10,497 bases of DNA. Origin: Microcystaceae cyanobacterium. Its GTDB lineage: Bacteria; Cyanobacteriota; Cyanobacteriia; Cyanobacteriales; Microcystaceae. A model generated the notes under the pieces. It made no database searches, was not told the origin of the DNA, and worked only from the letters and a program-made list of their open reading frames with translations. Position numbers and translations under genes: made by a program. The DNA is taken from the NCBI GenBank assembly GCA_041746575.1, contig JBGTGT010000043.1:1-10497 (forward strand), given 5' to 3'. Position 1 is the first letter of the stretch. Every line of letters starts with the position of its first letter. Shown piece after piece: positions 1,649 to 10,497 of this stretch.

Positions 1649-2821
1649 ATGCCATCGTCCTATAGTAAGGAAACAAAGGTAACGGTTGACACGCTTATTC
1701 AGAAGTTCGCCGATTCTCGTTCTACAGGTTGTCTATCAATTCGAGGCTCAAAGGTTCAATGGTTTCTCTATTTTCATCAAGGGAGTATCATTTATATTAC
1801 CCATTCGTTAAAACCAGAAGAAAAGTTTGAGAGACATCTTCGCTATGTTAGTCAGCATAATCCGACCTTAAGTAGTGCAACACGAACACAGATTAGAAGT
1901 TTACTCACTCAAAATATTCAGGGGAAATTTTATAATCCAGAATACAGTACTTTAACGTATCTTGTCAATCACTCTTTTTTGGATTTTCAAGAAATTATGA
2001 CCTTTATTTTGCGAAGTTCAGAAGAATGTTTGGAGTCTCTTTTATCCGTTCAAGAAATTGAACATCAGTTTCAAGAAAGTACGGATTTTCCAAAGCCGTT
2101 GGCTCGGTTAGATTCTATAAAACTTTTAAACCAAGTTCGAGAAAAAATTCAAAAATGGCAAGACTTATGGCCAGAAATTGTATCGCCCTATGAGTGTCCT
2201 TATCTGCCCGCAGAAGATAATTTATCAACTCCTTTAGCCAAAGAAATTCGGCAAAAATTTGGTAAGATTTTAATTGGATTAAGTTTTCGTGAATTAGCCA
2301 GTCGTCTCAAACAAGATGAATTAACGTTAGCGAAGAAAATTCGTCCATTGATTCAAAGAGGTTTTGTCAAATTACGCGGTCCCCAAGCCCCTTTTGAACA
2401 GTTACCTTTGCTTTCTTCGGGTTGTCAACTTTCTTCGTCTTCCTCCCCTCCTTCACCTGATAAAACGATTATCTGTGTTGATGATAGTCCTAGCGTATTA
2501 AAAATAATTAAAAACTATTTAAGCGATCCTCAGATTGACGTTCATCTGATCACAGAATCACCCAAAGCATTAATAGAGATTATTAATTGTAAACCTGATT
2601 TAGTTTTATTAGATGTGAATATGCCCAATTTAGATGGCTATCAATTATGTAAATATATTCGGAATAATACAGATCTCAGTCAAACTCCGATTATTATGGT
2701 GACAGGAAAATCAGGATGGATTGATCGAGCAAAAGCTAAAGTTTCCGGTGCAACGGATTATCTTGTTAAACCTTTTAGTCAAGATGAATTGGTTCAGCTC
2801 GTTTCTAAGTATATATTCTAA
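1649..2821 (+). CDS. PatA-family response regulator (N-terminal PATAN/DUF4388-like domain + C-terminal receiver), PixG/TaxP-like
   Basis: 390 aa. The N-terminus STGCLSIRGSKVQWFLYFHQGSIIY is PATAN-like, followed by a Ser/Pro linker. The REC domain has ICVDDS, LVLLDVNMP, IMVT and YLVKPF. It is the first gene of a cheY-cheW-MCP-cheA cluster. Confidence 0.92.
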   Translation: MPSSYSKETKVTVDTLIQKFADSRSTGCLSIRGSKVQWFLYFHQGSIIYITHSLKPEEKFERHLRYVSQHNPTLSSATRTQIRSLLTQNIQGKFYNPEYSTLTYLVNHSFLDFQEIMTFILRSSEECLESLLSVQEIEHQFQESTDFPKPLARLDSIKLLNQVREKIQKWQDLWPEIVSPYECPYLPAEDNLSTPLAKEIRQKFGKILIGLSFRELASRLKQDELTLAKKIRPLIQRGFVKLRGPQAPFEQLPLLSSGCQLSSSSSPPSPDKTIICVDDSPSVLKIIKNYLSDPQIDVHLITESPKALIEIINCKPDLVLLDVNMPNLDGYQLCKYIRNNTDLSQTPIIMVTGKSGWIDRAKAKVSGATDYLVKPFSQDELVQLVSKYIF

Positions 2822-2870
2822 ATAAAATCTGAATTAAATTGTCCTGACCTTCTATTTTTTCTTAATTTTT

Positions 2871-2879
2871 GGGAATACT
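2871..2879 (+). promoter_or_regulatory. J-box (GGGAATACT) sigma-factor motif upstream of cheY
   Basis: Exact match to the GGGaAtacT consensus described for Nostoc punctiforme SigJ motility promoters. It is intergenic, correctly oriented and 46 bp before ATG 2926. Confidence 0.55.
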
Positions 2880-2925
2880 ATTTATATTAAACCCTTGCTC
2901 CCTTATTTTCAAGGAATGAAAAACA

Positions 2926-3291
2926 ATGATGCCTACTATTCTTGTTGTCGAAGATACCCCATCCGCTCAACAACTCCTTAATCAGTATCTCCAAGAGTCG
3001 GGTTACAATGTCATTAATGCTAATAATGGCAAAGAAGCTTTAGACAAAGTCAATCAGCAAAAACCAGACGTTGTCATTACCGATTTAGTAATGCCCGGTA
3101 TGAGTGGTTTAGAGTTATGTCGAAGCCTAAAAAAAGACCCTAACACTAAAAAACTTCCCGTGATTGCTTGTACCTCAAAAGATCAAGAATTGGATCGCTT
3201 ATGGGGGATGAAACAAGGAATTGATATTTATATCACGAAACCCTACAGTAAAGAAGAAATTATTCGTGCTGTACGCTCCGTCTCAGGTTAG
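2926..3291 (+). CDS. cheY: Single-domain CheY-like response regulator (PixH/PilH-like)
   Basis: 121 aa REC domain: ILVVEDT, VITDLVMPGMSG, IACTSK, DRLWGMKQG, YITKPY. Confidence 0.95.
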   Translation: MMPTILVVEDTPSAQQLLNQYLQESGYNVINANNGKEALDKVNQQKPDVVITDLVMPGMSGLELCRSLKKDPNTKKLPVIACTSKDQELDRLWGMKQGIDIYITKPYSKEEIIRAVRSVSG

Positions 3292-3418
3292 ATCTTTGAG
3301 TCATTAATAGTTGATTTGTCTCGTTCAATAAACTGTTAATCCCTGAAAAAATTTTATTGCTTAAATTGTATTTTTAAGCATTGATTTAACCTTATCAAAT
3401 TTAACCTATTTTCTTGCA

Positions 3419-3910
3419 ATGACACAAGCCTTAGCTGTAGAAAATGCTTCTACGTTTAATCAAGTCAAAGATGCTTATCTGAATCTTCAATTAGATGCTC
3501 AAGCTCAAATTCTTTTACCCATGACTCAAATTCAAGAAGTGGTTGAAGTCAGTTTAGAAAGGCTGACACCGATTCCCAATATGCCCTCATATGTGTTGGG
3601 ATTATTAAATCAACGTAGCCAAGTCATTTGGACAATTGATTTAGCAGCTTTTTTGAATTTTACACCTCTTAATCTTGAGCAAACCAGTTATACCATTACG
3701 ATTATTCGAGGCGGAAAAACTGCCATTGGATTAGCCACCGAAAAAATGAAGGGAATTATTCGTGCTTTTCCTGACAATATTCAATCCCCCGTTGGCGCAG
3801 TTGCACCTTCTATTGTTCCTTATCTTCGGGGCTGTTTATTTCATCCTCCTGAAACGATTTTTTTTGTTTTAGATCCCCAATCTATTTTATCAGTGAGCCG
3901 TTATCAGTGA
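3419..3910 (+). CDS. cheW: CheW-like coupling protein (PixI/PilI-like)
   Basis: 163 aa with LTPIPNMPSYVLGLLNQRSQVIWTIDL and PYLRGC...VLDPQSIL. It lies between cheY and the MCP. Confidence 0.94.
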   Translation: MTQALAVENASTFNQVKDAYLNLQLDAQAQILLPMTQIQEVVEVSLERLTPIPNMPSYVLGLLNQRSQVIWTIDLAAFLNFTPLNLEQTSYTITIIRGGKTAIGLATEKMKGIIRAFPDNIQSPVGAVAPSIVPYLRGCLFHPPETIFFVLDPQSILSVSRYQ

Positions 3911-3914
3911 GCCG
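3887..3914 (+). repeat. Perfect 14-bp tandem duplication (TTATCAGTGAGCCG x2) spanning the cheW stop
   Basis: Copies at 3887-3900 and 3901-3914; the TGA at 3908-3910 is in the second copy. Confidence 0.9.
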
Positions 3915-4004
3915 CTTTTTAGCTAACAGTTATTCTTTCTTACTTCTAGACTCCTGTAACACCTGAATTTCTAACCCTTATCAATGCTCGGAGAAATACA
4001 TCTC

Positions 4005-5009
4005 ATGACAGAACACTTTCCTCAAAATGGCTCCACTAATCAGCAAGTATCTGACTCAGAATTAACCGCTATTTCTGTGTCAGAAATTGAACCGTCTCCG
4101 CTTATTATCGAATCAGAAATTAAACCCTTTGAAGATGTTAATTCATCTCACAATACGCCAGTTGATGTCGAAGACACGTCATCTTCTCCTTTAATGCAAT
4201 GGTTTTCTAACCTTCCTGTTAATCGTAAACAAGTCACCACTTTGGTAACATCGGAAATCATTTCAGTTATTGGAATTGCCGGAATAGGAGTATTTCTAAT
4301 TTGGACAACGGGCCATAATCAATTAACGAACCAATCTAAATCAGAGGTAGCCGTTACTGAATTAAACTACATGACAAAAATTAATCAGATGGGCTTTGGT
4401 TTTCGCGGTCAATCAGATAATGTGGCCATTATTAATATCGCTCGTCTTTATAAAAATAAGGAAGTGATTCCTGTTGGATTGCGGCAACAAGTTAAGCAAA
4501 TTTTATTAGGAGAAACCATCGCTCGAAAAATTGAATATGCTACCCTAGTTGGTACAGATGGTAAAATTATTGCTAATGCTAATGCCAGTCGTATTGGTGT
4601 TTCTTTTGATCCAGGTGGTTTAGTCAGTAAAGTTCTAGATACGGGTTATCAATATAAATCCAGTGCTATCGTTTCTCAGGAAGAACTCAAAAAAGAAAAT
4701 CCTCTGTTACCTGATGGATTTGAAGGGAAAGAAGCCCTAATTCGCTACACCGCTACTCCTGTCAAAAATCCTGCGAATAAAAGCATTATTGGCGTTCTCA
4801 TTTCAGGTGATATTGTTAATCATAAACTGCCCATTCCTCAGGCAACCCTTAAGAGTTTTGATGGGGGATACAGTGCCATCTATTTCCGTAAGTCTGATGG
4901 TTCATTTGAGCAAGCGACTTCTTTACAGCAAACTGCCGATGAACAACTTCCTAATGTTTCTTTTCCTAGCCTTTCATTGCTTCAATCTGCGCTGGATAAT
5001 CAATCCTAG
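4005..5009 (+). CDS. N-terminal fragment of the split receptor: acidic cytoplasmic tail, TM1 and most of a periplasmic Cache-like sensor domain
   Basis: Hydrophobic [16 protein letters not shown] (~4257-4304), then [15 protein letters not shown] and [16 protein letters not shown]. It ends at TAG directly after the AATC duplication. Confidence 0.6.
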
Positions 5010-5016
5010 CCAAAAA

Positions 5017-6969
5017 GTGACTCAACAAGGGGTAAAAATTAAGGGTTCTCCCTACACAGTGGCGGCTATGACTTTACCGAATTTATGGCAACAATCTGTA
5101 GATGGGCCAGTTCCGATGGAGCAAAAAGAGCCCCCCGTGGCAATTTTAGTCCGAGGAACACCAGAAACAGGTTTAAATGCCCTTTTAAGAAATATGCTCC
5201 TTTTACAATTAGGTGCAGTCGGCCTTGCTTTATTAGCAGATGTTTTCCTTGTGAGATTATTAGGAAAAGCCATTGTCAAACCCATTGAACGACTCAAAGC
5301 GATAACGGAACAATTTGCCAAGGGCGATCGCCAAATTCGCGCTACAGTAACATCAAACGATGAAATTGGTCAACTTTCGGCGACTTTCAATGATTTAGCG
5401 GATAATATTACCCAAGCTGAACGACAACAAATCGCTGAAGCGCAACGAAAACAATGGTTCGCCGATATTGGGAAAGCACGGGAAGTCCATGAATTAACCA
5501 CTCCCTTTGAGGCATTATTAACAGAAGTACAGGAAAAAATACAGGCAGACCGAGTGGTTATTTACCGTTTTTCAGCCGAAGGGAAAGGATATGTGGCAAG
5601 TGAATCGTTAAGAATCGGTTTTCCTTCTAGTTTAGGCGATTCTTTTGAAGACTCTTGTATCAGCGAGGAAATTCTAGAAGGTTATCGACAGGGCAATATT
5701 GTCGTTAATGACAACGTAAATCACAAGAATTATCATGCTGATCATCTAAAATTACTCAACCGCTTGCAAATTCAGTCAAATGTAATCGTTCCCATCATTC
5801 AAGGAGAAGAAATCTTTGGCCTACTCATTGCTCATCATTGTCAAGCCACCCACCATTGGCAACCTGAAGAAATTACCGATTTGCAACAGTTGGCTACTCC
5901 CCTAGCGCAAGCTTTAGTAGGATTGGGCTTATTAGAACGAAAACAAGCGGATGCAGAGCGAATTGAGCAACAAAACCAACAATTACAGCTGGCATTGCTC
6001 CAATTGCTCTCGGATGTGGAAGGTGCAGCCAGCGGTAACTTAACCGTGCGTGCGGAGATTAGTGAGGGACAAATTGGCATTGTAGCCGACTTTTTTAACG
6101 CTATTATCGAAAATTTACGAGATATTGTAACTCAGGTTAAACAAACCACTGCTCAAGTGAACGCCTCCTTGGATAAAGATGAAACAGAAGTCGCTCAATT
6201 AGCCAAAGAATCTCAGAAACAAGCGAAGAAAATTCAACGGATGCTGACTTTCATTGAAGATATGGCAGCTTCTATTGAAACTGTAGCAAATAATGCCGGA
6301 ACAGCAGCGCAAACGGCTCGAAATGCTTCGCAAAAAGCAACTGATGGTGCGACGGCGATGGCTCAAACGGTTGATAGTATTGATAATCTACGAGAAACCG
6401 TTGCGATTACAGCGAAAAAGGTCAAACGGTTAGGGGAAATCTCTCAGCAAATTTCTAAGGTTATCTCTTTAATTAACGAAATTGCCTTGAAAACCAATCT
6501 TCTTGCGGTAAATGCGAGTATTGAGGCTGCCAGAGCAGGAGAAGAAGGACGAGGCTTTGCGGTAGTTGCTGAAGAAGTGGGACAATTGGCGGCACAATCC
6601 ACCACCGCAACCAAGGAAATCGAACAAATTGTTTCTGCCATTCAACAAGAAACCTTGGAAGTGGTTGAAGCAATGGAAATGGGAACAACCCAAGTGGTGG
6701 AAGGGACTCGATTGCTAGAGCAAGCCAAACGCAGTTTAGGAGAAATTGTGACTGAATCCCAAGAAATTGACCAATTGGTACAGTCTATCTCTGAATCGAC
6801 TACTTCTCAAACCAAAACCTCCGAAATGGTGAGTAATTTTATGAAAGATATTGCCAAAGTGTCTGATGATTACTCAGATGCGTCTCGACAAGTTTCTGAA
6901 TCCCTCAAAGAAACAGTGGCGATCGCCCTTACTCTCCAAAAATCGGTAGGAACTTTCAAAGTTGACTAA
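5017..6969 (+). CDS. C-terminal fragment of the split receptor: TM2, HAMP, GAF and methyl-accepting signalling domain (start uncertain: GTG 5017, ATG 5068, 5116 or 5194)
   Basis: TM2 [32 protein letters not shown]...[25 protein letters not shown]...EDSCIS...[16 protein letters not shown]; hairpin tip [32 protein letters not shown]. Confidence 0.65.
5324..5331. repeat. HIP1 palindrome GCGATCGC
   Basis: Exact octamer, extended to GGCGATCGCC. Confidence 0.85.
6919..6926. repeat. HIP1 palindrome GCGATCGC
   Basis: Exact octamer, extended to GGCGATCGCC. Confidence 0.85.
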
Positions 6970-6992
6970 AGTTTCATCACTATCATTCTCTT

Positions 6993-6998
6993 AGGAGG
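6993..6998 (+). promoter_or_regulatory. Shine-Dalgarno of the ferredoxin gene
   Basis: AGGAGG lies 8 nt upstream of ATG 7007. Confidence 0.8.
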
Positions 6999-7006
6999 AA
7001 TTTACC

Positions 7007-7321
7007 ATGTCTCAATCTATCAGAACCTATCGCGTAACGTTGATTAACGAAGCTACCGGTACCAAAAACACCATTAAGGTGAAAGAAGATGAATATATCT
7101 ATGAAGCGGCGGAAATGCAGGGAATTAATCTACCTGTTTCCTGTCATGCAGGTGCCTGTATCAGTTGTGCGGCCAAAATCATCGAAGGAAGCGTTGATCA
7201 AGATCATAGTTTTTTAAAACTAAAAGAGCTAGATGCTGGATTTTTGTTGACTTGTCGTGCGTATCCTCAATCTAATTGTGTGATTCTCACCCACCAAGAA
7301 GAAGCCTTACTTGATCTTTAG
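7007..7321 (+). CDS. Plant-type [2Fe-2S] ferredoxin (divergent PetF-like paralogue)
   Basis: 104 aa with C-x4-C-x2-C...C ([13 protein letters not shown]...[21 protein letters not shown]) and a strong RBS. Confidence 0.95.
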
Positions 7322-7340
7322 TCATTTGTCAAGTTCAAAC

Positions 7341-7410
7341 AGGTGTTAGGTTCTAGGTTGTTAAAAATTTAATTTCAACCTCGAAACCTTGCACCTCATA
7401 CCTCATACCT
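7341..7410. repeat. Inverted pair of degenerate heptamer (STRR-like) repeats forming an imperfect hairpin between the ferredoxin gene and cheA
   Basis: AGGTGTT AGGTTCT AGGTTG (7341-7360) pairs imperfectly with CAACCTCGAAACCTTGCACCT (7376-7396), which continues as CATACCT CATACCT. Confidence 0.65.
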
Positions 7411-7422
7411 AAACTAATTGCC

Positions 7423-10356
7423 ATGTTTCCAGAAAAAGAACAAGAAATTCGGCGACAATTTTTAGATGAAGCATCAGAATATGTTGATATTCTCGAATCT
7501 AGCTTATTAGGAATCACCGCTCAATCTCTTAGCAACACCCAACTTGATGCTATTAGACGGGCAGCCCATTCGTTAAAGGGGGGCGCAGCCTTAATGAGTT
7601 ATACGACCCTCAGTCATTTAGCTCATAAACTTGAAGATGGCTTTAATTCTCTGCAAAATGGCTGGATTTGCCTTGATGAATTTACAGAAAGCTTATTTTT
7701 GAAAAGTATTGATAATTTACGTCATTGTCTTAGCCAACATCGTCAAGGCATTGAACAAATTGATGAAAATTGGCTGAATAATGAGGTCATCCCTTTATTT
7801 GAGCAATTAGAGGAATTAATGTCTTCTTGTGCTTCCTCTGAGTCGTCTGAAGATGGGAATATCTCAGAAGAAATGGATATGCGAGTTTTTATGTTTGAAA
7901 CGGAGGTCGAAGGATGTTTACAAAACTTAGAAAAGGTAATTTCTAGTAATGAGAAAGTTTGTTTAAAAGAGGAATTCCAAATCGCTGCCCAAGCATTAGG
8001 CGGATTAGGGGAAATGTTAGAATTACCCGCGTTTAATCATCTTTGTGGTGAAATTGAACAAGCAGTGATGGTAGCCAGCGAAGAGACGCTTTTAGGCGTG
8101 GTACAACGGGCTTTAGACGCGTGGCGGCGATCGCAAGCTATCATTATGATTAAGCAATTTGATGCCTTACCAGACCATTTTAGCGCAGAAATCCCTTCAG
8201 AAGCCACTTACGAGACCTTAGGGATCTTAAACTGTGAAACTGAAGAAATTTCCGAAACGGATAGTTTAGATTTTTTGGCCGCATTAGATGCGTTTAATGG
8301 GGACGAAGAAGTTTCAGATAAGACTGTACCTCCATGGCAAACCGATTTAGCGGCGTTTAATTTGGCAGAAGAAGCCTTTAGCACAGAGGAAATTAAAGAA
8401 AATATTCCAAAAATTGACGCCAGAGAACAAGCTGAACCCGTTTTAGTGACGTCGGCGGTCAATTCATCATCTGTTTCTGGGCAAAATATGACCCCATCTC
8501 CCCCCCTTGACTCTCCCTCAGACCATAATGTTCGGGTGTCTGTGGATAAATTAGAGCAGATGAGAGAGTTTTTTGAAGAATTAACGATAGAAAAAAACGG
8601 ATTAAACCTACAACTGCAACAATTACACGGATTAACTCAATTATTACGTCAAAGAGTGAATCATTTAGAGGGGTCTAATCGTTCCTTACGCAACCTTTAT
8701 GATCAATCTAATTTTACGCCTCAATCTTTAAACCTTAAAGGTGAGTGGGATGTCCTCGAAATGGATAGTTACAGCGAGATTCATCCTGTTTTCCAAGATT
8801 TGATGGAAACGATTGTGCAAATTCAAGAAGTCACAGGAGATATTGAATTTAATCTTGATCAAACCCAACATTCCGCTAAAGATCTTTCTCGAACGTCGGG
8901 ACTCTTACAAAATAACTTAACTCAGGTGAGAATGCGTCCCTTTAGCGATTTAGTAGGGCGATTTCCGAGAGCAATTCGGGAAATGAGTCTTAAATACGGA
9001 AAATTGGTTAATTTACATATTAAAGGTGAGTCCATCCCCATTGATCGAATGATTTTAGACGCACTCAATGAACCTCTGATTCATCTTTTACGTAACGCCT
9101 TTGATCACGGAATTGAAAATCCCGACGTTCGGATCGCTAACGGAAAACCCCCTCAAGGAAATATTACCCTTGAAGCGATGCAACAGGGAAACCGAATTGT
9201 GATTACGATTAAAGACGACGGACAGGGCATTAATTTAGAGAAAATTGCCGAAAAAGCTCAAAAAAAAGACGATTATAAGTTAAATAAGCATCAACTTCTT
9301 GATTTAATTTTTGAAGCCGGTTTTACAACGGCCTCCGAAGTGACTGACTTATCAGGTCGCGGGGTGGGAATGGATATTGTACGGACGCAATTACAGCGTA
9401 TTCGGGGACAAATTCAAGTATCGACCGAAAAAGAAGAAGGCACAACCTTCATAATTACTGTTCCTTTTACGTTATCGCTCATTCGAGTCTTATTAGTCGA
9501 AAGTGGGGGAATGTTAATGGCTATCCCTAGTAATACCGTCGAGGAAATGTTAGTCATCTCACCAGAGATGAAAATTGAAAGTTTGGGACAAGATTGGCTC
9601 AAATGGGATGAGGAAATGATTCCCTTGTTAAATCTCTCCTCATGGCTAAATTTTAATCGTTTAAGCCCCCGATATAACTCCAGCGATCCCCCCGTTATTA
9701 ATCAACCGATTGTTTTGATGATTTCCCAAGGATCTCGCCTCTTTGGGCTAGAAATGGATAAATATTGGGGTGAACAAGAAGTGACGATGCGTACCTTAGA
9801 TAGTGTCTTTCCTTTACCGACTGGCTTAACGGGATGTACCATTCTAGGGGATGGACGAGTGGTTCCCTTAGCGGATGCGATGACCTTGATTAACTGGATT
9901 GAACAAAACCGTCATGGTAGCGTTGCTTCCCATCTGATTTCCTCCTCAGAGATGGAAAATTTCTCCATTCCTAATTATAAGCCGCAGAAAACCACGATTT
10001 TAGTCGTAGATGATTCTATTAATGTACGTCGCTTTGTGGCATTAACTTTAGAAAAAGCAGGTTATCGAGTGCAACAAGCAAAAGATGGACAAGAAGCCTT
10101 AGAAAAACTCGAAAATTATTCCATCCAATCCGTGATTTGTGATATTGAAATGCCTCGCTTAGATGGGTTTGGCTTTTTAGCTCATGTTCGTGCCAATCCC
10201 CAATATAAAACTTTACCCATTATTATGTTAACCTCTCGCAGTGGTGAAAAACATCGCAAAATTGCCATGAATTTAGGTGCAACCGACTACTTTGCCAAAC
10301 CTTTCCAAGAACAAACCCTCTTAAAAACCCTTAAATTAGTTATCAATAAGCAGTAA
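7423..10356 (+). CDS. cheA: Hybrid CheA histidine kinase/response regulator (Hpt - pseudo-Hpt - dimerisation - HATPase - CheW - REC), PixL-like
   Basis: 977 aa. Hpt RAAHSLKGGA; N-box HLLRNAFDHG; G1 DDGQGI; F-box IFEAGFTT; G2 SGRGVGMDIV; P5 GCTILGDGRVV; REC VVDDS/ICDIEMP/LTSR/FAKPF. Confidence 0.96.
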   Translation: MFPEKEQEIRRQFLDEASEYVDILESSLLGITAQSLSNTQLDAIRRAAHSLKGGAALMSYTTLSHLAHKLEDGFNSLQNGWICLDEFTESLFLKSIDNLRHCLSQHRQGIEQIDENWLNNEVIPLFEQLEELMSSCASSESSEDGNISEEMDMRVFMFETEVEGCLQNLEKVISSNEKVCLKEEFQIAAQALGGLGEMLELPAFNHLCGEIEQAVMVASEETLLGVVQRALDAWRRSQAIIMIKQFDALPDHFSAEIPSEATYETLGILNCETEEISETDSLDFLAALDAFNGDEEVSDKTVPPWQTDLAAFNLAEEAFSTEEIKENIPKIDAREQAEPVLVTSAVNSSSVSGQNMTPSPPLDSPSDHNVRVSVDKLEQMREFFEELTIEKNGLNLQLQQLHGLTQLLRQRVNHLEGSNRSLRNLYDQSNFTPQSLNLKGEWDVLEMDSYSEIHPVFQDLMETIVQIQEVTGDIEFNLDQTQHSAKDLSRTSGLLQNNLTQVRMRPFSDLVGRFPRAIREMSLKYGKLVNLHIKGESIPIDRMILDALNEPLIHLLRNAFDHGIENPDVRIANGKPPQGNITLEAMQQGNRIVITIKDDGQGINLEKIAEKAQKKDDYKLNKHQLLDLIFEAGFTTASEVTDLSGRGVGMDIVRTQLQRIRGQIQVSTEKEEGTTFIITVPFTLSLIRVLLVESGGMLMAIPSNTVEEMLVISPEMKIESLGQDWLKWDEEMIPLLNLSSWLNFNRLSPRYNSSDPPVINQPIVLMISQGSRLFGLEMDKYWGEQEVTMRTLDSVFPLPTGLTGCTILGDGRVVPLADAMTLINWIEQNRHGSVASHLISSSEMENFSIPNYKPQKTTILVVDDSINVRRFVALTLEKAGYRVQQAKDGQEALEKLENYSIQSVICDIEMPRLDGFGFLAHVRANPQYKTLPIIMLTSRSGEKHRKIAMNLGATDYFAKPFQEQTLLKTLKLVINKQ
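8127..8134. repeat. HIP1 palindrome GCGATCGC
   Basis: Exact octamer. Confidence 0.85.
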
Positions 10357-10357
10357 T

Positions 10358-10497
10358 TAAGTAGCTAGGCAGAATTAAATAGAAAACGTTCTGTAGTATG
10401 TTGCGATCGTTGTGCGCGAGTTTCTACACTCTCGATTACAGTGATCGCCAAATCATATTCGTCTTCAAAAATCCGACCAGCCAGTTCATGTGTTTTT
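10358..10497 (-). mobile_element. 3' end of a second IS630-family insertion sequence (continues beyond the window)
   Basis: On the minus strand it ends ...ATTTAATTCTGCCTAGCTACTTA, with the transposase stop inside the terminal repeat and a terminal TA. It resembles the left element's terminus. Confidence 0.85.
10365..10496 (-). CDS. IS630-family transposase, C-terminal 43 aa (partial; not in the ORF track)
   Basis: KTHELAGRIFEDEYDLAITVIESVETRAQRSQHTTERFLFNSA* aligns ungapped with the left transposase KTHKISGRMFEDESDLAKAV...QYLF (19 of the first 40 residues identical). Confidence 0.88.
   Translation of the reverse strand, partial: KTHELAGRIFEDEYDLAITVIESVETRAQRSQHTTERFLFNSA

Follow-up and report, generated by a model that had tools for sequence, protein, structure and literature searches.

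The window analysed here, i.e., the whole stretch of 10,497 nucleotides from a Microcystaceae cyanobacterium (contig JBGTGT010000043.1 of assembly GCA_041746575.1, forward strand), carries a chemosensory operon in which a [2Fe–2S] ferredoxin gene is located between the gene of the receptor, a methyl-accepting chemotaxis protein (MCP), and cheA (Table 1). An earlier note, made from the letters alone, had read the order patA-like, cheY, cheW, MCP, ferredoxin and cheA, all on the + strand, with 37 bp between the MCP stop and the ferredoxin, 101 bp between the ferredoxin and cheA, and an AGGAGG ribosome-binding site; domain and open reading frame (ORF) analysis gives the same order, and the spacings and the site were found as noted. 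The co-orientation of a patA-type regulator, cheY, cheW, MCP and hybrid cheA in one cluster fits the Tax/Pix pilus-class pattern. The same order is shared with the Thermosynechococcus pix operon, whose receptor is TePixJ, and with Synechocystis Tax1 (PixG-H-I-J-L and a second CheW), as described in the available part of PMC11181946, and the second cheW is present in the window's relatives. The CheA and the MCP of the window group with those of the TePixJ operon, with the best match in genome G515, a CheA subclade support of 97 (quick tree) and an MCP subclade support of 69/94; the best G515 match of the window operon is the operon whose receptor GAF domain is identical to that of TePixJ (3VV4). 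In contrast to TePixJ/Tax1, the window operon has a ferredoxin inside, its GAF lacks the chromophore Cys, and its receptor gene is frameshifted. The genome comparisons described below show that a ferredoxin of this type, Fd2, is an optional component of TePixJ-class operons and not a one-off.

Table 1. Genes and sequence features of the chemosensory operon, in window coordinates
Feature	Positions	Strand	Evidence and remarks
patA-type response regulator (PixG-like)	1649..2821	+	DUF4388 residues 12-171, Response_reg 274-385 (Pfam)
cheY (PixH-like)	2926..3291	+	Response_reg domain
cheW (PixI-like)	3419..3910	+	CheW domain
MCP, N-terminal half: first membrane helix, periplasmic domain	3984..5009	+	64-66% identity to N-halves of intact same-genus MCPs; early TAG stop; real start probably 4005
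4-base tandem duplication shifting the MCP frame	4998..5005	+	sequence
MCP, C-terminal half: second membrane helix, HAMP, GAF, 40H-length signalling hairpin	5002..6969	+	Pfam HAMP, GAF, MCPsignal
CBCR-like GAF without canonical chromophore Cys (CBCR, cyanobacteriochrome)	5494..5916	+	alignment to TePixJ 3VV4; close relatives without it too
Basic patch KKIQRMLTF, N-terminal methylation helix; predicted ferredoxin-binding surface	6226..6252	+	co-varies with ferredoxin; aligns with ELEQ site of canonical receptor
Opposite hairpin arm EM...KD..K, same height as basic patch	6823..6858	+	co-varying columns
AGGAGG ribosome-binding site of ferredoxin	6993..6998	+	sequence; 8 nt upstream of ATG
Fd2/Fed4-type [2Fe–2S] ferredoxin, 104 aa	7007..7321	+	Fer2; CX4CX2C...C intact; net charge −5
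Stem-loop, inverted heptamer repeats, ferredoxin-cheA spacer	7341..7396	+	−21.6 kcal/mol, z −3.7; no U tail
Hybrid cheA (PixL-like)	7423..10356	+	Hpt, HATPase_c, CheW, REC; CheA subclade of TePixJ operon
End of multi-copy insertion sequence, at site of relatives' second cheW	10358..10497	−	99-100% copies at six other contig ends

The ferredoxin possesses the plant-type ligands and fold and scores 117 bits against TIGR02008 (cut-off 81). Its closest solved structure is the minor ferredoxin Fd2 of Thermosynechococcus elongatus (6IRI), at 133 bits vs. 117 for the best PetF, and a predicted model of the window protein matches 6IRI with a TM-score of 0.90. The loop DHSFLKLKE stands where PetF has DQSFLDDDQ, CISC where PetF has CSTC, and PetF, with a net charge of −15 to −19 vs. 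−5, forms a separate clade (support 99/100). The proximity to 6IRI, the residues H67, K71, E74 and L102, and the hydrophobic residue in C-x-x-C place the window protein in the Fd2/Fed4 type, the defining residues being drawn from this analysis' own contrast with PetF. The 6IRI Fd2 and Synechocystis Fed4 (slr0150) are likewise weakly acidic and possess DHxFLKxxELxAGF and a hydrophobic residue in C-I/V-x-C. Fd2 is said to be reduced by photosystem I and to be a poor donor to FNR, and the point about a valine in its C-x-x-C motif reportedly comes from Motomura 2019. In the available text of PMC7363133 and PMC8887894, T. elongatus Fd2 is a homologue of Synechocystis Fdx4/slr0150 with a midpoint potential (Em) of −440 mV, and according to excerpts of PMC4284462 fed4 is dispensable and sits in the slr0144-0151 operon. 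As far as this literature was available, Fd2/Fed4 is an electron carrier with no link to taxis, whereas the window gene lies inside a che operon. By position the window gene is not Fed4 proper; the slr0144-0152-like cluster on contig C12 of the window genome, a V4R/globin cluster, has a separate, more distant Fed4-like gene, and the genome also contains two PetF genes. All four cluster Cys are invariant among the operon copies, and no fusion to MCP or CheA was found among 15 longer homologues, which is weak evidence.

With identical loci counted once, the Fd2-type ferredoxin is found in 19 distinct TePixJ-class operons, which cover five family codes and two orders plus metagenome contigs. Twelve carry the gene in the slot, i.e., directly before cheA or after the MCP (or cheW): the window, L086, L087/L166, L088, L165, L167 (whose contig stops before cheA), L288, L442, L495, L502, L503 and L504. 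The other seven carry it at the head of the operon, directly before patA (L096, L185, L171, L286, L496, L497 and L499). Because these are two different positions in one operon class, retention is indicated rather than one accident. Within the window's family the type is present in 3 of 89 genomes, each time in the slot. PetF served as a control and occupies the slot or head position in none of its 130 loci; a che-like neighbour was seen in four of them, three by a short 31–35% match and one as a convergent CheA. The earlier note had asked whether che clusters house the nearest homologues of the ferredoxin, and the synteny searches from the ferredoxin side showed that they do, upon which a first reading of the gene as a lineage-specific passenger was dropped. 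The loci came from alignment-based scans, a single-protein locus scan having returned nothing. At least one true case, G041 with 151 bits, escaped the profile cut-off, and the tallies of the 400-genome searches are lower bounds because only 12 ferredoxin or 2 CheA candidates were scored per genome. Seven linked CheAs were long enough for a tree and fall at five places within one 52-row subclade, which includes the kinase of the TePixJ operon. The ferredoxin tree is poorly resolved, and the approximately unbiased test does not reject one common origin for the slot copies (p-AU 0.54). The 6IRI protein, identical to that of L284, is sister to the head-of-operon copies (95/93); in G515 the 6IRI-identical gene lies far from the pix operon, and two same-genus genomes keep the gene at the operon head.

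The receptor, rather than the kinase, shows residues that follow the ferredoxin. Within the subclade, 19 columns of the MCP signalling domain distinguish 6 linked receptors from 41 unlinked ones, with the sharpest contrast at K84 and R88 (6/6 vs. 2%), M284 (5/6 vs. 0%) and D291 (5/6 vs. 2%). The same comparison of CheA (7 linked vs. 45 unlinked) gave no specific column, none being rarer than 43% among the unlinked rows, and CheA was rejected as the ferredoxin partner for lack of co-varying columns. The MCP columns cluster in two facing segments which, counted from the tip of the hairpin, span −97 to −105 and +94 to +105 (alignment A5). The first aligns gap-free with QELEQA of the canonical 40H-length receptor 6S18, a position which, from the methylation consensus, we take to be a methylation site; KKIQRM stands there in the window receptor and the EE/EQ pair is absent. 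Among 107 receptors, the strict motif KK[IV]xRM occurs in 15 of 18 in-operon receptors, in 6 of 9 with Fd2 elsewhere in the genome and in 1 of 80 others; the corresponding fractions for a relaxed motif, [RK][ML], which was defined only after L502-L504 were seen, are 18/18, 9/9 and 2/80. The mean net charge of the patch segment in these three groups is +3.6, +3.1 and −0.6. L166, which is partial, and L359, with a long branch and odd make-up, were left out of the MCP trees and tallies. Receptors found later via the ferredoxin carry the strict motif in 4 of 7 cases and the relaxed one in all 7. Sister pairs show the same difference, e.g., KKIQRM in L288 vs. LKIQEM in L080, or the window vs. EKIQHM, NKIQNM, QKIQQM and QKIQEM, and TePixJ itself carries the motif.

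A blind search for the DNA pattern of the motif in 401 genomes of the window's order gave six matches, four of them in MCPs, and all four of these genomes have the ferredoxin in the operon. Three are known slot cases and the fourth is G041, whereas the two matches in G044 and G298 are not in MCPs. In G041 the motif is in an orphan receptor, and the operon reads cheW2-patA-cheY-cheY-cheW-ferredoxin-cheA, with a ferredoxin that the earlier cut-off had missed; a new operon with a ferredoxin was predicted from the motif in this blind search. In a second order (48 genomes), the ferredoxin type is present in 14 of 15 motif genomes vs. 10 of 33 motif-negative ones, the MCP identity of the motif matches in G787 and G790 being assumed. 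Six of these 14 have the gene in the operon and eight elsewhere, and six of the ten motif-negative genomes with a ferredoxin possess the relaxed motif; in three of these six the gene occupies the slot. When the motif segments are left out of the tree, all motif receptors fall into one subclade (69/94; support 60 in a separate, larger quick tree), and four nested lineages without an in-operon ferredoxin have each lost at least one basic residue. Five independent pairs agree and none is opposed (p 0.0625, the lowest value that five pairs can give). The pattern would correspond to one gain and a repeated joint loss of patch and ferredoxin, which is not statistically settled.

Several observations weigh against a functional link between ferredoxin and receptor. 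The match of motif and ferredoxin is partly shared ancestry because all motif receptors sit in one subclade; in the larger quick tree only 2 to 3.4 pairs agree, with none opposed (p 0.25–0.5), and many pairs do not differ, so that the independent contrasts are too few for significance. The relaxed motif was fitted to late cases, as said above. G788 has the motif and no Fd2 was found in its 100 contigs, L378 retains R-L although it has no ferredoxin of this type, and in G047 and G080 the motif is gone while an Fd2-type gene persists elsewhere. The ferredoxin itself showed no clear counter-signature. Most Fd2-type genes lie outside che clusters: of 30 loci of the type in the window's order, 3 occupy the slot, 13 lie within or close to the V4R/globin cluster, 3 follow a psaL-like gene and 11 stand alone. 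Absence from orthologous clusters, which the earlier note had named as telling against its proposal, was partly found, i.e., none of 80 clusters chosen by CheA likeness carries the Fd2-type ferredoxin and both same-genus relatives are without it, yet the 19 operons above do carry the type. Finally, the slot also takes passengers, namely a four-helix-bundle gene in L067 and a YefM-YoeB pair in L086.

Plant-type ferredoxins dock on basic, Met/Phe-flanked surfaces of this kind, as is established for FNR and similar partners. On balance it appears somewhat probable, judging from the co-varying residues and the synteny, that the Fd2-type ferredoxin binds the receptor patch with a redox-dependent effect which couples photosynthetic electron flow to CheA. 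The acidic ferredoxin would dock on the basic, Met/Phe-flanked patch of the methylation helix, and either the binding or the helix packing would depend on the redox state of the [2Fe–2S] cluster; with no electron-accepting cofactor in the hairpin, the effect would be allosteric. The ferredoxin would thus act as a redox-dependent input coupling photosynthetic electron flow to CheA activity. The output may follow the Tax1 route reported in the available part of PMC11181946, in which PixL acts on PixG and PixH and these on the pilus motor, i.e., from CheA through PatA/CheY to the type IV pilus motor. According to the same part of this source, cyanobacterial systems of this kind are without methylation enzymes. 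The earlier note had proposed that the ferredoxin could be a dedicated subunit informing the MCP/CheA array of photosynthetic electron flow or O2. The idea passed the genomic test and gained a co-varying surface; this surface is on the MCP and not on CheA, and the binding is a prediction. In the window itself the module is probably no longer working because the receptor gene is frameshifted. More tentatively, and with somewhat less than even confidence, a lineage of cyanobacterial Pix receptors that includes TePixJ may have converted its methylation site to the docking of a low-potential ferredoxin that photosystem I reduces; local photosynthetic electron flow would then set kinase output directly.

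The same synteny and co-varying patch would be explained equally well if the ferredoxin bound the patch constitutively, as a structural or localising subunit (for array stability, or to hold low-potential ferredoxin at the cell pole for another enzyme) that passes no redox signal to CheA. The hairpin without a redox cofactor is in line with this, and the tandem copies (four in L088, three in L165) could be a dosage effect. However, the four invariant cluster Cys, the position of the patch at the site where other receptors are methylation-tuned, and the potential of its own that the available part of PMC7363133 reports for Fd2 argue against purely constitutive binding, which we regard as improbable.

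The ferredoxin could also be co-expressed without touching the receptor, supplying electrons for bilin synthesis or thiol reduction, with the patch belonging to another partner or being a decaying ancestral trait. The head-of-operon receptors mostly have the DPCF and CH motifs of an intact CBCR, the other main home of the ferredoxin family is the slr0144-0152-like cluster with V4R and bilin-globin genes (PMC10151467), three CheA Cys are conserved in 82–94% of the subclade, and the confinement of motif receptors to one subclade also fits. However, a GAF is absent from all five other slot receptors tested (Pfam) and the CBCR motif from four more, the CheA Cys occur regardless of whether the ferredoxin is there, and in sister lineages without the ferredoxin gene the patch is eroded. 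Bilin supply, which the earlier note had offered as an alternative, is therefore rejected for the slot operons, the window GAF itself being without the Cys, and is possible for the head cases; as a whole this no-contact explanation is unlikely, if slightly less so than constitutive binding. Least probable is a passenger, i.e., one old insertion beside an ancestral MCP that was carried along and randomly lost in a spacer tolerant of small genes. The heptamer repeats and unrelated inserts in the slot of relatives, the CheA-selected clusters without the gene, the unrejected single origin of the slot copies and the decay of the window operon are all what a passenger would lead one to expect. A passenger, however, should not track receptor surface residues, and this gene is kept in two orders and at two positions, has expanded to three or four copies, and in G041 stayed in the operon while the motif stayed in a receptor that had moved away; PetF, moreover, is never so placed.

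CheD binds the methylation helices of receptors, and in the Cet system a redox signal is passed on via a separate sensor protein. In the available parts of the sources, sugar taxis through the phosphotransferase system via McpC and ethanol taxis via McpB (PMC7542364) let a metabolic signal enter on the cytoplasmic side of the membrane, in or close to the methylation helices, and TlpD with its metabolic partners (PMC4820699) provides a cytoplasmic input possibly via a separate protein, both as proposed here. None of the McpC, McpB, CheD and TlpD inputs uses a ferredoxin or comes from a photosynthetic pilus system. Aer and CetA/CetB (excerpts of PMC2886117 and PMC3558505) pass the redox state of electron transport to CheA, as would be the case here if the model holds; in contrast to the FAD-PAS sensor of Aer/Cet, the proposed sensor is a free [2Fe–2S] ferredoxin, and the window receptor gives no PAS hit. 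The word "ferredoxin" is absent from PMC11181946 and PMC9090330, and word searches of PMC13383048 and PMC2886117 found no coupling of a ferredoxin to a che cluster or MCP. The searches of the open-access literature turned up no paper that places a ferredoxin in a che cluster or on an MCP, in agreement with the earlier note, which knew of no ferredoxin as a described component of such clusters. The Pix-class cluster and the ferredoxin type are both known; their coupling, which was not found in the literature searched, is what appears new. A phototaxis phenotype may have been reported for an Fd2 mutant; no search confirmed it, and it would lower the novelty if in print.

The question addressed is how photosynthesis feeds into cyanobacterial taxis. 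According to the available part of PMC13383048, many species lose photophobotaxis under 3-(3,4-dichlorophenyl)-1,1-dimethylurea (DCMU) and it is unclear what the MCP domain of PixJ does, and excerpts of PMC9090330 report that Thermosynechococcus photoreceptor knockouts still move towards light. If true, the proposal would amount to a switch from methylation to ferredoxin and would provide a molecular route for photosynthesis-dependent (DCMU-sensitive) taxis, as well as a role for a ferredoxin of poorly known biology. TePixJ and Fd2 form a named, testable pair, both already crystallised and from a culturable model, and the few surface residues involved make a direct test possible. The module cannot explain taxis in all cyanobacteria because it is patchy (in the window's order, for example, the strict motif occurs in 4 of 401 genomes), and the copy in the window is itself broken.

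The break concerns the receptor, which the earlier note had treated as one gene. Its frame is broken near 5002, leaving two ORFs in different frames, while same-genus relatives have the MCP as a single ORF of 995 and 1041 amino acids. Contigs from four runs of one study, three of which may be the source of this DNA, have identical letters across the break; an assembly error was thereby ruled out as the cause. The N-terminal half has a hydrophobic helix near residue 84 and no Pfam match, and its periplasmic domain gave no match in a PDB profile search. The C-terminal half aligns to 6S18 gap-free, vs. 14-residue gaps to Aer. Pfam found no PAS domain in either half or in intact relatives. The GAF finds its best alignment with that of TePixJ; compared with the latter, the first (CH-motif) Cys is Asp (TECH to HADH) and the second is kept (DPCF to DSCI). 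Given the frameshift and the Asp in place of the canonical bilin-binding Cys, the light sensing suggested by the earlier note is not supported for the window receptor; its chemical sensing is weakly supported, a dCache_1 domain being present in two of four aligned relatives and absent from the window's own N-terminal half. In the MCP GAFs of L067, L075, L077, L376, L393 and L397 the DXC Cys is kept and the canonical CH Cys is absent, and this DXC-only group is perhaps a thiol or non-covalent tetrapyrrole sensor.

With its frameshifted MCP, the insertion-sequence end after cheA and a broken LuxR-type gene upstream, the window operon looks decayed. The insertion-sequence end lies directly 3′ of cheA, and the orthologous cheW2 begins contig C21 of the same genome. 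Upstream, an IS630-type transposase remnant (DDE_3) occupies 132-810, with related copies at other contig ends, and the LuxR-type regulator at 822-1535 is interrupted by in-frame stops, the remaining ORF holding only the C-terminal helix-turn-helix. No terminator-like site was found on the + strand in either spacer flanking the ferredoxin, and together with the stem-loop without a U tail this makes co-transcription of MCP, ferredoxin and cheA plausible; a promoter scan stayed at chance level (23 vs. 21.2). A Pfam scan found no cheR or cheB among the window genes, and the only CheR and CheB matches of the window genome are domains fused in one 1420-amino acid ORF on another contig (C49:16208-17581).

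Some further observations were made at related loci. Heptamer tandem repeats flank the MCP-cheA spacer (L067:8830-9520; L066:9193-9305; L068), with four-helix-bundle (23S_rRNA_IVP) genes within it or after cheA; in L067, from a same-genus relative, such a gene lies in the slot between the repeats. The YefM-YoeB toxin-antitoxin pair of L086 lies between ferredoxin and cheA at 7369-7921. The tandem ferredoxin paralogues (L088:6612-8138; L165:4577-5656) follow short GAF-less receptors and have net charges of −2 to −9; they are possibly a set tuned to different potentials. In the head-type operon L496, cheW is apparently split into two ORFs (5231-5738). The Fd2-type gene lies directly 3′ of the psaL-like gene, a label that we assume for this neighbour, in L092, L248 and L250, which belong to one family whose receptors have lost the motif. 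PetF is co-oriented with a cheW-like gene in G025 (L027:931-1794), and in L163, L214 and L227 it has a long convergent CheA from another class nearby. In the window CheA, residues 150-245 (about 7870-8160) form a second helical Hpt-like stretch without His, and the conserved Cys 165, 180 and 208 may constitute a metal or thiol site.

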